A DNA stretch of 64,000 nucleotides from Desulfobacterales bacterium (lineage in GTDB: Bacteria > Desulfobacterota > Desulfobacteria > Desulfobacterales > C00003060): contig JABXJX010000002.1 in the NCBI GenBank assembly GCA_013375375.1, positions 1,584 to 65,583 on the forward strand, written 5' to 3'. The notes under the pieces are model-generated. The model made no database searches and was not told where the DNA came from. It worked only from the letters and a program-made list of their open reading frames with translations. This document shows, in pieces, positions 7,771 to 42,476 of the stretch. The translations under genes and the position numbers were made by a program. The first letter of the stretch is position 1, and each line of letters begins with the position of its first letter.

Positions 7771-8031
7771 TTACAAACGAGAACCTTTTCTACTCGACAT
7801 TGGTTTGGGGTCATAATGTCTTTTCTTTCGTTCCGAGTCTCCCGGGCTGGTGTTTTTGGTGATTTATCTGCAGGGGATTTTTGCCCCCTCCGCATTCTCC
7901 CGCAAGCGGGAGCTGCGGTTTCCCCCACAGATAAGTCACAAAAACACGGCGCCCTCCCGCCAGTCACTCCAGAAAAGATATCATGACCCCCCTATCTATA
8001 TAATGTCGGGTAGTTAATGTATTTTTTAGTA
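7771..8031 (+). repeat. nested-hairpin MITE-like repeat, full-length copy A
   Basis: This 261-bp copy is near-identical to 22666-22925 and 41266-41499. Its left and right halves are imperfect reverse complements. It fills the gap between the convergent stops at 7755 and 8034. Confidence 0.85.
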
Positions 8032-8033
8032 GG

Positions 8034-9125
8034 TCAATTTTGCCTAAGGATTGAAGCTACAATTGTATCATGAAGAAGTGGCCTGAACGTCTTGATTCGT
8101 TCATTATCCCGGCTGGGATGAATACGGTTGGTCAGGAGGATCACGATCAGATTTTTTTGGAGGTCCATCCAGAAGGATGTCCCTGTAAAACCGAGGTGGC
8201 CGACACTTTGATCAGAAAAATGCCGTCCGCTGCTCGAATCGGGCTGTGAAGGGGTATCAAACCCGAGCGCCCAGCTCCCAGGACCGGACTGTTGCCTGAG
8301 AAATGTTTGCACCACATTTTCGTGTAAGAGGCCGCTGTTTTGTTTTCCCTCGTGGGTATTTAGGAGTTCTTTGAGGAGACCATAAACATCCTGGGCTGTA
8401 CCAAACAGCCCGGCGTGTCCTGCCACCCCTCCCAACACATAAGCGTTGTCGTCGTGGACCTCGCCATCCAGAATTTTCCCGCGCCAAGGACAGTCTTCAG
8501 TCGCGGCATACAACTGATCGTTTCGTACTTGTGACAGCTCAACACTCAAGGGGATGAAAAAAAGATGCTTGAGTCCGAGTGGCCCATACACGGAATCTTC
8601 CACAAACCGGTCAAGAGACTCTTGTGCAATGACTTCAACCAGCCATTCCAGGATCATGAAACCGATATCGCTGTACAGGCAAGCTTGCCCTGGTTTATGG
8701 ATAAGTTCTTCGGCAAGAAGCAGCTTCCTGAGTGAAGCTTTTCGCTCAGATGGCGGGATCTCCATGAGCTTCTTGTAATAGGGCCGGTAGTCCGGAAGAC
8801 CGGATGTGTGTGAAAGAAGCCGGCGGATAGTGATTTCTGCTTTGTCCGTACCTGAGCAGTCCTGGATTACGCTGCCCAGCGTCTGATCAGGATCAAGCTT
8901 TCCGTCCTGGACAAGGAGCATAATAGCAACAGTGGTGGACAGGGGCTTGGTCAATGATGCCAGGTCAAAGACTGTTCCGGTTGTCATGGGCCACTCAGGC
9001 GCGAGTCTCGCAAGGCCGAATGCCTCAAAGAATACCACGCGACCTTCCTTTGCTACAAGGAGCACACCACCCGGAAAGACACCGTCTATGACGCCGCTTT
9101 TCATCAAATCCCGTACGGACTTCAT
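8034..9125 (-). CDS. serine hydrolase, beta-lactamase/PBP4-like family
   Basis: SxxK motif in DLASLTKPLSTTV, plus HTSGLPDY and a HLGFTGTS-type C-terminal motif. Overlaps ldcA by 4 nt. Confidence 0.75.
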   Translation of the reverse strand: MKSVRDLMKSGVIDGVFPGGVLLVAKEGRVVFFEAFGLARLAPEWPMTTGTVFDLASLTKPLSTTVAIMLLVQDGKLDPDQTLGSVIQDCSGTDKAEITIRRLLSHTSGLPDYRPYYKKLMEIPPSERKASLRKLLLAEELIHKPGQACLYSDIGFMILEWLVEVIAQESLDRFVEDSVYGPLGLKHLFFIPLSVELSQVRNDQLYAATEDCPWRGKILDGEVHDDNAYVLGGVAGHAGLFGTAQDVYGLLKELLNTHEGKQNSGLLHENVVQTFLRQQSGPGSWALGFDTPSQPDSSSGRHFSDQSVGHLGFTGTSFWMDLQKNLIVILLTNRIHPSRDNERIKTFRPLLHDTIVASILRQN

Positions 9126-10042
9126 GATGTGTCCTTGTAGGTGGCTGGTTCCTGAAATCGAAGGCTACCGTTTTCAGTATCCAAGTGTGCTTCGAGTCCG
9201 ATCGGTACGGTTAGGTTTTCGGTTCCGTGGCCAATGTCGAATCCCGCGAGAATGGGGATGTCCATGTAGCGAAATGCTTCCTTGACAATCGCATACACAT
9301 CCTCAAGGGAGCCGCATTCCTGAAAGGACCCTAAAATAATTCCGGCAATTCCATCCAGGTGTCCCCCGAGATAGAGTTGAGAAAGCATCCTGTCAATACG
9401 GTAGGGGGCTTCCCCGCGGTCTTCGAAAAAAAGGAGATGCCCGTCAAACCGTGGCTCATAAGGTGTCCCCAGGAGATGGCAGATACTGGTAAGGTTGCCT
9501 CCCACCACATGGCCTGAGGCACGCCCGGGATTTAGGACCACAGGCTGGGACGGCTTGAATTCCAGGGGCAGGGTTGAGCCTATGGCGTCAATCAATGCTG
9601 TGCAGGTTTTTTCAGGGCCGGTTCCCAGGCTGGTTACGAGCGGCCCGTGAAACGTTACAAGTTGGCATCTGGCATAAATAGTCACCAGCAGGGCGGTTAT
9701 GTCGCTGAATCCCACCAGGATTTTCGGGTTGGCACGGATGGCCTCAAAGTCAAGCGAAGGGAGAACCTTCATGGAGCCGAATCCCCCACGGGCACAGAGT
9801 ATTGCTTTTATTGATTCATCTTCAAACAGCTTGATCAACTGTGAGGCGCGCTCGATATCGGAACCGGCAAGATATCCCTTGCGGCTGAAGAGATTGTCGG
9901 GAATCTTTACACGGTAGCCCGCAGACTCGAGTACTCCAACCCCGCGCTCAAAGGCCTCTCGATCAAACGGGGAGGCCGGCGCTGCAATACCGATGGTGTC
10001 GCCGGGGCAGATGGCCTGAGGTTTGACGAGAGGTTGTTCCAT
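9122..10042 (-). CDS. ldcA: LD-carboxypeptidase (muramoyltetrapeptide carboxypeptidase, peptidase S66)
   Basis: ILCARGGFGS, VGFSDITALL (catalytic Ser context) and a GHG..N C-terminal motif. Confidence 0.8.
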   Translation of the reverse strand: MEQPLVKPQAICPGDTIGIAAPASPFDREAFERGVGVLESAGYRVKIPDNLFSRKGYLAGSDIERASQLIKLFEDESIKAILCARGGFGSMKVLPSLDFEAIRANPKILVGFSDITALLVTIYARCQLVTFHGPLVTSLGTGPEKTCTALIDAIGSTLPLEFKPSQPVVLNPGRASGHVVGGNLTSICHLLGTPYEPRFDGHLLFFEDRGEAPYRIDRMLSQLYLGGHLDGIAGIILGSFQECGSLEDVYAIVKEAFRYMDIPILAGFDIGHGTENLTVPIGLEAHLDTENGSLRFQEPATYKDTS

Positions 10043-10149
10043 AAATTAAAAATAGCATGGAACCCGTTGGATTGTAAAGGTTTGTAATTGAAACCAAGAG
10101 GTGTGTTGACAGACCAGGTACAAAGTGTTAGTGAAATTTACATTCTCGG

Positions 10150-10226
10150 CGGGGCGTGGCGCAGTCTGGTAGCGCACCTGAATGGGGTTCAGGGGGTCGG
10201 AGGTTCAAATCCTCTCGCCCCGACCA
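10150..10226 (+). tRNA. tRNA-Pro (anticodon GGG)
   Basis: A manual cloverleaf gives acceptor CGGGGCG/CGCCCCG, D stem GCGC/GCGC, anticodon stem CCTGA/TCAGG with loop ATGGGGT (GGG at positions 34-36, G37), T arm GGAGG-TTCAAAT-CCTCT, and an encoded CCA. Confidence 0.9.
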
Positions 10227-10347
10227 GAAAAACTTGAAAATTAAGCGGGCGAGAGGATAGCTGATCCGCTCTTTTTTATGACTTTTTAGGCTGTGTATAT
10301 CCTATGTATACCTTATTCTACTCCCATGGCACTGTTTCATATAGTGT

Positions 10348-41246: not shown

Positions 41247-41265
41247 AAACTGTCCTCCGCTGTTC

Positions 41266-41499
41266 GTTATTGGTTTGGGATCATGACGTCTTTTCTTTCG
41301 TTCCGAGTCTCCCGGGCTGGTGTTTTTTGCAACTTATCTGCGGGGGAGCTTTACCCCCTCCGCATTCTCCCGCAAGCGGGAGCTGCGGTTTCCCCCACAG
41401 ATAAGTAACAAAAACACGGCGCCCTCCCGCCAGTCACTCCAGAAAAGACATCATGATCCCATATCTATGATGTCGAGTGGTTAATGTCCTTTTTAATAA
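41266..41499 (+). repeat. nested-hairpin MITE-like repeat, copy C (left terminus truncated)
   Basis: Aligns with copies A/B from ATTGGTTTGGG onward to TTAATGTCCTTTTTAATAA. It begins 20 nt from the 41246 start codon. Confidence 0.8.
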
Positions 41500-41536
41500 C
41501 TCTACGAACCCAATAAACCCAACAGGCTCAGCCGGT

Positions 41537-42313
41537 CTAAAAGCCTCCACCGGCCCCTCCGCCACCGCTAAAGCCGCCGCCAAAGCCGCCAAAACCCCCG
41601 CCAAAGCTACCGAAGCTGCCGCCGAATCCGCCCCGGCCGTAGCCTCCTCCATATCCGATTCCTCTTCCCATGAACATAAGGAGCAGGAGGGGGAAGAGAC
41701 CGCCTCTCCTCCTGCCCATGGAAAAGAGGAGCAACAGAAAGAAAAGCATGAACAGCAGGGACGATAAGCCGGCGCCCTTTTTGACGGGCCGTCTAACAGG
41801 AACCTCTCCGCTCAGACTGACTCCCGCGTCTTTGGCAATGAGGCCGGCTATGGCGAGGGTGCCGTTCAAGAGTCCTTCTCCAAATTGATTTTGCTTCAAA
41901 TAGGGGACAATATACTGGTCGCGTATCTCGCCGGCCAGGCCGTCAGGGATGATGCCTTCTATTCCATAGCCGGTCTCGATCCGCATCTTGCGCTCTTTGA
42001 TGGTGACAAAGATCAGGACTCCTCTATCTTCGCCTTTTTTCCCGATCCCCCATGCCGCGTACAAGCGGTTGGCGTACTCGTTGTAATCCTCACCACCGAT
42101 CTCCGGCATAGTGACCACCACCACAGGCACACCTGTTTTTCTCAAAAGTTCACCGGTTACTCGCAACAACTTCTCTTGATAATGAGGTGGAATGACATTG
42201 GCAAAATCGTTGACGAGTCCACGCGGCTTTGGAAACACATCGGCGGTATGACTTACGACCGGGCATGCGAGCGCCAAAAAAAGGAGAGTTGCCAGGGCAA
42301 GCCCGATCTTCAT
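41537..42313 (-). CDS. TPM-domain (YgcG-like) protein with Gly-rich C-terminal tail
   Basis: Signal peptide, LVNDFANVI... and VVVTMPEIGGEDYNEYANRLYAAWGIGKK (TPM/DUF477), a TM segment, and a GGGYGRGGFGGSFG tail. The start is ATG 42313, because the upstream part of the ORF lies in repeat D. Confidence 0.8.
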   Translation of the reverse strand: MKIGLALATLLFLALACPVVSHTADVFPKPRGLVNDFANVIPPHYQEKLLRVTGELLRKTGVPVVVVTMPEIGGEDYNEYANRLYAAWGIGKKGEDRGVLIFVTIKERKMRIETGYGIEGIIPDGLAGEIRDQYIVPYLKQNQFGEGLLNGTLAIAGLIAKDAGVSLSGEVPVRRPVKKGAGLSSLLFMLFFLLLLFSMGRRRGGLFPLLLLMFMGRGIGYGGGYGRGGFGGSFGSFGGGFGGFGGGFSGGGGAGGGF

Positions 42314-42347
42314 ATTCGAATATTGTCTATTAGTGATCATATAATAT

Positions 42348-42476
42348 TTACTAACAAGAAACTTTTGTGCTCGACATTGGTTTGGGGTCATGACGTCTTT
42401 TCTTTTGTTCCGAGTCTCCCGGACTACAGCGCCCCCCTATCTATTGATGTCGGGTAGTTAATGTACTTTTTAGTTA
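42348..42476 (+). repeat. nested-hairpin MITE-like repeat, short copy D
   Basis: The left arm, up to CCGAGTCTCCCGGACT, is joined to ACAGCGCCC and the right terminus. The termini are as in copies A/B. Confidence 0.75.

Follow-up and report, generated by a model that had tools for sequence, protein, structure and literature searches.

The window that we analysed is a stretch of 64,000 nucleotides on contig JABXJX010000002.1 (assembly GCA_013375375.1) of an uncultured Desulfobacterales bacterium. Near the ends of its genes, including those of the zinc-uptake operon znuABC-zur, lie six copies of one palindromic repeat, four on the + strand and two on the - strand within 35 kb (Table 1). Copy A occupies the whole spacer between the convergent stop codons of a sensor kinase gene (6679-7755) and a beta-lactamase-family gene (8034-9125), and copy B has dapA (DHDPS) on one side and znuA on the other. 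In znuB (ABC-3 permease) the stop codon is TAG, and copy F is inserted at its TA, 13 nt upstream of the zur/fur start. Copy E lies between the divergent genes for a hybrid kinase (31480-33630, - strand) and a Macro-domain protein (34093-34620, + strand), copy D is found immediately 5' of a TPM-domain gene, and the SD/5' leader of the gene at 40521-41246 (- strand) stands where the left tip of copy C would be.

Table 1. Copies of the repeat, in window positions
Copy	Position	Strand	Form	Ends and adjacent TA
A	7774-8029	+	full-length element	CAAACGAG…TTTTTTAG; TA 7772-7773 and 8030-8031
B	22669-22922	+	full-length element	TA 22667-22668 and 22923-22924
C	~41266-41499	+	left terminal ~25 nt absent	right end TTAA + TA (41497-41498)
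D	42348-42476	+	both inverted repeats intact; apex deleted	TA 42349-42350; right tip TTTAG, then T + TA
E	33886-34045	-	both arms present; apex (centre) deleted; right tip degenerate	TA 34043-34044 adjoins left tip
F	25549-25616 (64-bp mini-element 25551-25614)	-	two inverted repeats only	TA 25549-25550 and 25615-25616

A BLAST search of the window with copy B returned exactly these six places and none besides, copies A and C being 89% (E = 2e-95) and 88% identical to the query, respectively; the alignment to copy C covered 41269-41499. The two terminal motifs occurred 4 and 3 times at ≤3 mismatches, compared with 0.00 expected in shuffles. An earlier note on this DNA had described six copies with shared termini, one of them lacking its left tip, and all of them could be recovered as described. 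Its further statement that all copies lie between genes holds for the copies generally, although copy F shares one base, the last, with a stop codon.

An independent ENA assembly made from the same sample has copies A-D in identical form, with copy A on scaffold L024 (100% identical) and copies C and D on scaffold L020. In this ENA assembly, the position of copy F is a 100-N scaffold gap, and at the site of copy E a contig end enters an interior of the full-length type; the internal deletion of copy E may be a population variant or an effect of assembly. The reading of the family as an assembly artefact was rejected, since copies recur in independent assemblies. One apparent inverted pair, on contig L008, is a palindromic assembly artefact.

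Element anatomy and distribution

The full-length element is about 255 bp long and has the ends CTAATGAGAACGTTTTGTACCCGACAT … ATGTCGGGTAGTTAATGTACTTTTTAG. Its terminal inverted repeats are imperfect and 27 bp in length, with 20/27 positions matching between CTAATGAGAACGTTTTGTACCCGACAT and the reverse-complemented right end, CTAAAAAGTACATTAACTACCCGACAT; a CTAA tip and an inner box, TACCCGACAT, are common to both ends. The element has no coding capacity, its sole open frame (~70 codons) being shifted between copies by a 2-nt central indel. Copies range in size from 56 to 260 bp, and the internally deleted derivatives retain the termini. Three of these (L012, L004 and L007) collapsed between ATGATGTC direct repeats with both ends kept, and the deletion junction of copy D, GGACT-ACAGCGCC, is identical to that of an L008 copy at an unrelated site.

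Beyond the window, scans of GTDB genomes and of metagenomes with an internal motif of the element led to 12 further distinct sites on contigs within L002-L017, which come from metagenomes or MAGs of related uncultured Desulfobacterales, so the earlier note's term "repeat family" is justified. The GTDB scan contributed one true copy (L002); two other matches from that scan (L001, L003) and three metagenome matches inside genes (L006, L014, L016) were chance matches and are not counted. The total is therefore at least 18 distinct sites, drawn from JGI, GenBank and ENA and from four or more independent assemblies, with 81-96% pairwise identity among copies. Every one of the 18 sites is intergenic, and most lie 4-40 bp from a gene end; both orientations are represented, as are 5', 3', convergent and divergent contexts. 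MAG contigs break at these repeats. The family is wholly absent from the nearest neighbours found through TPM-protein homologues (L022 and L023, ~77-78% nucleotide identity), a distance too great for empty sites of copies C and D to be defined.

Target-site duplication and the probable mobiliser

Contig L018 is syntenic with the window and 89-92% identical to it over 12 kb. At positions 8776-9033 this contig (~92% identical) carries an orthologue of copy B with unchanged flanks, so the insertion of copy B is old. The site of copy F is empty in L018 and reads AAGAGATAGGTTGA / AGAGATAGGTT (AGAGA-TA-GGTT), and the filled site in the window reads AAGAGA-TA-(CTAAT…ATTAG, 64 bp)-TA-GGTTTGA. The net gain is the element plus one TA, which is therefore a 2-bp TA target-site duplication, in an empty-versus-filled comparison of one site whose filled form falls under the N-gap of the ENA assembly. 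Copy F, a recent insertion of 64 bp, indicates that such short forms are still able to move. Among the copies having both tips, TA is present on both flanks in 10 of 14, with a preference for T-TA…TA-A. The duplication at this orthologous site, together with the 27-bp inverted repeats and the deletion derivatives that keep both ends, bears out the earlier description of the repeats as MITE-like.

We estimate at roughly 0.8 the probability that the repeats are a non-autonomous DNA transposon (MITE) family moved in trans, probably by a DDE transposase of the IS630/Tc1-mariner type. This type is the most likely mobiliser because a 2-bp duplication specific to TA is the signature of that DDE family, whose elements have TA as their almost exclusive insertion site and duplicate it (PMC2170065), and the assignment of the transposase family takes the TA duplication as its single basis. 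A member of the group, ISY100, requires only about 24-30 bp of each end (PMC2170065). A transposase whose gene lies elsewhere in the genome would bind both inverted repeats, excise the element and paste it into a TA dinucleotide, which would thereby be duplicated. Long imperfect palindromes such as this one are prone to apical or slipped-strand deletion, which would explain the 56-160-bp derivatives consisting of ends only, and copies survive only in short intergenic spacers near gene ends.

No transposase was found in the window, as had been noted before; only housekeeping families appeared when 40 ORFs were scanned against Pfam and in the gene tables of matching ENA scaffolds. There was likewise no IS in ~200 kb of related loci, and no autonomous parent IS with matching ends in either the window or those loci. 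An IS630 parent with a DDE_3 gene would carry the ends TA + CTAATGAG…/…CTTTTTAG + TA. Two candidates were set aside: the matches to the left end alone in L004 and L012 proved to be mini-elements of 56-58 bp, and the repeats on either side of gatB in L007 are members of a different small palindromic family and no IS.

It is possible that an enzyme outside IS630/Tc1-mariner moved the MITE, for example one of the IS5 group (IS427/IS1031-like, PIF/Harbinger-related) with its 2-3-bp TA/TNA duplications, since some IS5-group elements also generate 2-3-bp duplications that contain TA. The flanks are often TTA…TAA, copy D is flanked by TTA/TTA, and with the parent IS absent from our finds the transposase family is not fixed. 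However, the empty site points to a duplication of exactly 2 bp, TA, with flanks of A and G rather than TTA/TAA, and the TTA…TAA flanks are inverted, not direct, an arrangement in keeping with a TA duplication where the preferred target is the palindrome T-TA-A. On balance we find a mobiliser outside IS630/Tc1-mariner unlikely.

Hairpin structure and possible functional readings

The earlier note had also proposed that the left half of each copy is an imperfect reverse complement of the right half, so that a copy could fold as one long hairpin. The folding results agree with this: a consensus structure built from 9 full-length copies contains 83 pairs with 96% of cells paired, and for copy B the folding energy is -102.4 kcal/mol as RNA (z = -9.5) and -50.4 kcal/mol as DNA (z = -7.3). 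At the apex, a hairpin, GGGGGCATTCCTTGCCCCC, is followed by CCGCA-hairpin-TGCGG, which gives a Y-shaped tip of two small hairpins and makes "nested" a fair word for the structure. Copies that are co-transcribed should form very stable RNA hairpins, and if these act on termination, mRNA stability or processing, that would be a by-product of the element.

A sister element in L004 has different termini and the same hairpin architecture; of its 65 pairs, 19 differ on both sides (in one sequence), and an apex block of 28 nt is identical between it and the family. Such conservation, together with about 16-19 compensatory changes that preserve the supporting stems, is the basis for a reading in which the Y-shaped apex is a functional cargo module (a protein-binding or regulatory RNA or DNA structure) spread to gene ends by different MITE backbones. 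We consider this very doubtful. If it were true, some copies would have been recruited as signals for processing or termination inside operons, for example copy F in znuABC-zur or copy A between convergent genes.

The same architecture, shared apex block and 19 compensatory pairs could also speak for a structured RNA or DNA signal of the host (a terminator, a hairpin acting in mRNA stability or RNase III processing, or a binding site for a protein), in which the hairpin is selected and mobility is secondary or ancient. The extreme stability of the hairpin and the location of copies a few bases from stop codons, one of them within an operon that is left unbroken, would be consistent with such a signal, and ERIC and Correia elements provide precedents for effects at the RNA level (PMC2229807). 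However, copies are found in either orientation and at gene ends of every kind, and the apex is dispensable, as copies D, E and F and the mini forms are without it. Unpaired mismatches accumulate in individual copies and are hardly ever compensated within the family; covariation there is weak, with 3 compensatory pairs, all from one copy, a value reached by 10 of 500 shuffles. In addition, there is no U-tract terminator at the element and no Rfam match, and the family is altogether missing from the closest relatives of this gene neighbourhood. A host signal thus appears highly improbable, and readings of the repeats as integron attC sites, CRISPR or duplicated riboswitches or terminators were rejected, there being no array, no integrase and no U-tract.

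Relation to known families and significance

TTAC, the target of IS608, precedes 12 of the 18 copies and, with the strong single-stranded DNA hairpin, might suggest mobility as ssDNA by a Y1/HUH transposase (IS200/IS605 PATE or REP/RAYT type) with 5' TTAC as the target tetranucleotide. We regard this as practically untenable: the empty site, GATAGG, contains neither TAC nor TTAC, so the C belongs to the insert; the ends are inverted repeats over 27 bp, which PATEs do not have; copies lie locally in both orientations with no strand bias; a Y1 gene is absent from the window; and the element is far larger than REPs (20-40 bp; PMC3733652). REP/BIME sequences are similarly intergenic palindromic repeats close to gene ends, but REPs carry GTAG/CGTC tags and are associated with Y1 (RAYT) transposases (PMC3733652, PMC2817692), whereas the present unit is 56-260 bp long, with CTAAT…ATTAG tips and a TA duplication.

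The MITE family that we propose, with IS630/Tc1-mariner as its probable mobiliser, resembles better-known elements in several ways. Bacterial MITEs typically have inverted repeats, terminal TA, target duplications and long stem-loops (PMC2229807), and the present family is small, non-coding and dispersed, with inverted repeats and a target duplication seen at one empty site. Among the bacterial MITEs derived from IS630/Tc1-mariner elements, RUP of Streptococcus pneumoniae, mobilised by IS630-Spn1, is also non-coding, intergenic and multi-copy, with inverted repeats, a stem-loop and TA insertion and duplication (PMC2229807, PMC2170065). RUP is 107 bp long as against ~255 bp here, has no sequence similarity to the present element and comes from a different host, and its link to IS630-Spn1 contrasts with the putative link to an IS630-family element in our case. 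Chunjie, a MITE in Geobacter uraniireducens (178-235 bp, folding at -98 to -130 kcal/mol; PMC3184786), shares a Deltaproteobacteria-type host, the size class, the very stable fold and size variants that keep the inverted repeats, and it too was inserted in an operon without destroying it (PMC3184786, PMC10969869), as was copy F in znuABC-zur. The inverted repeats of Chunjie are 21 bp long, however, and its direct repeats 9 bp, in contrast to 27 bp and a 2-bp TA duplication here, and a different transposase family is therefore expected. Finally, Correia/NEMIS and ERIC/IRU elements have terminal TA with target duplication, long imperfect palindromes transcribed into hairpins, and internally deleted size classes (PMC2229807). 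They are set apart by host and by their shorter length (~104-157 bp in Neisseria and 127 bp in Enterobacteriaceae, respectively), and the documented RNase III/RNase E or promoter effects are theirs.

No described family matched the repeat, in keeping with the earlier note's failure to recognise it. Rfam gave no match on the copies in a scan of the whole window at the gathering score and none on copy B at E ≤ 1; copy B had no match among PLSDB plasmids or INPHARED phages (blastn, distant mode); and IMG/VR viral contigs had 0 matches to the terminal, central and right-end motifs. A conserved 17-mer appears as a string in 0 papers, and a literature search on MITEs and IS630 in Desulfo* returned nothing relevant. 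The family is an unnamed representative of the familiar MITE class and not a new kind of element.

In summary, this family leaves knowledge of how MITEs work unchanged. Naming it accounts for six otherwise mysterious intergenic structures in the window, and it draws attention to one source of contig breaks, fold-back contigs and scaffold gaps in this lineage's MAGs (L008, L019, L020). Its polymorphic insertions are usable as strain-level population-genetic markers in sediment metagenomes. The znuABC-zur locus, where a MITE replaced a stop codon in a zinc-uptake operon and left the operon unbroken, offers a natural test case.

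Copies, anatomy and host range

A repeat scan and BLAST of copy B against the window located the six copies of the hairpin repeat where the earlier note had placed them, with no further copies in the window. The shared terminal motifs occur four and three times at ≤3 mismatches, against 0.00 expected from shuffles. The window was also said to lack a transposase, and indeed only housekeeping families turned up when 40 ORFs were scanned against Pfam and the ENA scaffolds' gene tables were inspected.

Copies of the repeat family in the window
Copy	Coordinates	Strand	State
A	7771-8031	+	full length
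B	22666-22925	+	full length
C	41269-41499	+	left ~25 nt missing
D	42348-42476	+	centre deleted
E	33886-34045	-	centre deleted
F	25549-25616	-	termini only

The element itself extends from CTAAT… to …ATTAG. Its ends form 27-bp inverted repeats, in which 20 of 27 positions agree between the left end and the reverse-complemented right end, and both share the tip CTAA and an inner box, TACCCGACAT. No reading frame is conserved across copies, and a central 2-nt indel shifts the sole open frame between them. The shorter forms are deletion derivatives that retain the element ends: copy D and the copy on contig L008, at unrelated sites, have the same deletion junction (GGCT joined to ACAGCGCC), the forms on L012, L004 and L007 collapsed between ATGATGTC direct repeats of the two arms, and copy F collapsed at GTC.

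Searching the GTDB species set with a 21-nt motif internal to the element gave a single true copy, on a Desulfobacterales MAG (L002); the motif also matched 15 metagenome stretches, 12 with real copies and 3 by chance. Leaving out duplicates (L010 = L009, L015 = L011) and the orthologue of copy B in L018, a syntenic contig, there are 12 distinct insertion sites outside the window and 18 in total; full-length copies are 81-96% identical (median 90%). As had been noticed for the window copies, the sites are intergenic (18/18), most of them 4-40 bp away from a start or stop codon, in both orientations and with all gene-end configurations represented. Two more distant loci with the same gene neighbourhood (L022 and L023, about 77-78% nucleotide identity) are without any copy; the family is restricted to a narrow lineage. 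In L023, a Desulfobacterales MAG, a different palindromic sequence (10805-11011; TTCCATCCAGAAATGG…CATTTCTGAATTGGAA) occupies the orthologue of the copy-C spacer, suggesting that hairpin elements have landed in this spacer repeatedly.

Scaffolds of ENA assembly ERZ23498930 (sample SAMN13740702) match the window at 100% identity, as does a Logan contig of SRR10836662; copies A, B, C and D are unchanged in the independent ENA assembly. There, copy F is covered by a 100-N scaffold gap (L019 3983-4082), and a contig that terminates inside copy E (L020, 1-54) shows a full-length-type interior, at odds with the window, so that the internal deletion of copy E is uncertain. L008 is a perfectly palindromic contig of 4.2 kb, which indicates that hairpins of this family disturb assemblers; this contig, the gap over F and the mismatch at the contig end in E are assembly artefacts caused by the elements.

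Two annotation anomalies in the window were recorded separately. Two ORFs, 142-921 and 933-4511, each match GATase_2 and together represent the glutamate synthase large subunit, interrupted either by a frameshift or stop (a pseudogene) or by a sequencing or assembly error. ARAGORN called a 'tRNA-???' with a 2-nt anticodon at 8387-8474 (-), within a beta-lactamase-family ORF; this call is probably a false positive, since Rfam gives it no support.

Insertion at TA and mobilisation

Over window 21575-33614, contig L018 is collinear and 89-92% identical. Copy B is present in it at the same position and between the same flanks, and the element (92.7% identical) has diverged like those flanks, which marks an old insertion. 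Copy F is absent from L018, where the empty site reads …AAGAGATAGGTTGATGGG…, and the filled site in the window reads …AAGAGA-TA-CTAATAAAAAG…CTTATTAG-TA-GGTTTGAGGGG…. The insert thus consists of a 64-bp element and a second TA, a 2-bp TA target-site duplication. TA flanks both sides of 10 of the 14 copies that retain both tips, and the adjoining outer base is mostly T to the left and A to the right, suggesting a target preference for T-TA-A.

Copy F was inserted at the TA within the TAG stop of an ABC-3 (znuB-like) permease gene in a znuA-znuC-znuB-zur-like operon. The gene now ends TAC-TAA, having gained one Tyr codon and a new stop, TAA, from the element; the Shine-Dalgarno sequence and start of the downstream Fur-family gene, 16 nt away, are intact.

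Specific insertion at TA with duplication of that TA is characteristic of IS630/Tc1-mariner elements, and RUP is a precedent for a bacterial MITE linked to IS630. The data are consistent with a MITE mobilised in trans by a DDE transposase, with the 27-bp inverted repeats as its recognition sites. Since the window and about 200 kb of related loci yielded no parent IS, we infer the transposase family, putatively IS630/Tc1-mariner, from the TA-specific insertion and duplication; an IS5-group enzyme is a possible alternative mobiliser. ISY100 requires no more than about 24-30 bp of each end (PMC2170065), in agreement with a 64-bp form that survives and is mobile. The evidence speaks against a Y1/PATE or REP mechanism: the element ends are inverted repeats, TAC is absent from the empty site and copies lie in both orientations.

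Other repeats also differ between the window and L018. A second, unrelated palindromic element of ~180 bp (window 30958-31143; inverted repeats GCAGGCTGTTGAAAAAC / GTTTTTCAACAGCTTGC) is another polymorphic TA-flanked MITE family; the matching spot in L018 (2462-2472) holds only TA-ACAGGCTGT-TA and may be an excision or deletion remnant. A third family is represented by window 38550-38702, 76% identical to a ~145-bp insert at L018 10131-10264 that lies between a lysine-riboswitch terminator and the dapA ribosome-binding site and is absent from the window at about 21572.

The hairpin and its upkeep

The left half of each copy had been described as an imperfect reverse complement of the right half, and the consensus structure of nine full-length copies bears this out, with 83 pairs and 96% of cells paired. 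The folding energy of copy B is -102 kcal/mol for RNA (z = -9.5) and -50 kcal/mol for DNA (z = -7.3); at the hairpin tip, two small hairpins branch from a three-way junction. Within the family, copies decay mostly by unpaired single changes; the only 3 compensatory pairs all come from one divergent copy (L009a), a number reached by 10 of 500 shuffles, and such covariation is weak evidence of a selected structure.

A sister element (L004 3875-4309, minus strand) differs from the studied element in its termini but has the same Y-shaped apex. Aligned to the family, 19 of its 65 pairs are changed on both sides, which argues that the hairpin architecture was kept among master copies over longer times. 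From this one sister sequence, we attribute the upkeep either to selection at the level of the element or to homogenisation between the two arms of the palindrome. Locus-by-locus host function was rejected as its cause because the apex is dispensable in copies D, E, F and the mini forms. A primary role as a structured RNA is likewise disfavoured by this dispensability, by the scatter of copies over orientations and gene contexts, by the absence of a U-tract and by an Rfam search without a match.

The sister element makes up the entire spacer between two convergent genes as one nested palindrome of -200 kcal/mol. Nested in it, between GGGAT direct repeats, is an inner palindromic element (TGAGACCTTTGCA…) with further copies at L009 9851-9927 and L007 3536-3610. 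Yet another palindromic family, of ~225 bp (…GGGGGATCTCTTTTTGAGATCAGGTCA…), occurs at L007 6735-6959, L009 2934-3158 and L002 7166-7357; its repeats around gatB in L007 were considered as an IS, a reading rejected in favour of a palindromic repeat family.

Standing among known elements

Inverted repeats, TA at the termini, target duplication and long stem-loops are classic properties of bacterial MITEs (PMC2229807), and all are present here. Size and fold energy fall within the range of Chunjie of Geobacter (178-235 bp, -98 to -130 kcal/mol; PMC3184786), which has also been located inside an operon (PMC10969869); however, Chunjie duplications are of 9 bp, whereas those of the present family are the 2-bp TA. 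Rfam, plasmids, phages and a string search of the literature gave no sequence match to any described element; the description as unrecognised stands, in the sense of a family without a name.

In summary, this is a real, previously unnamed MITE family of an uncultured Desulfobacterales lineage, of a kind that is itself well known. Three points are somewhat unusual: the hairpin is long, nearly perfect and capped by a conserved Y-shaped apex; one insertion (copy F) took over a stop codon; and several such families abound in this lineage.
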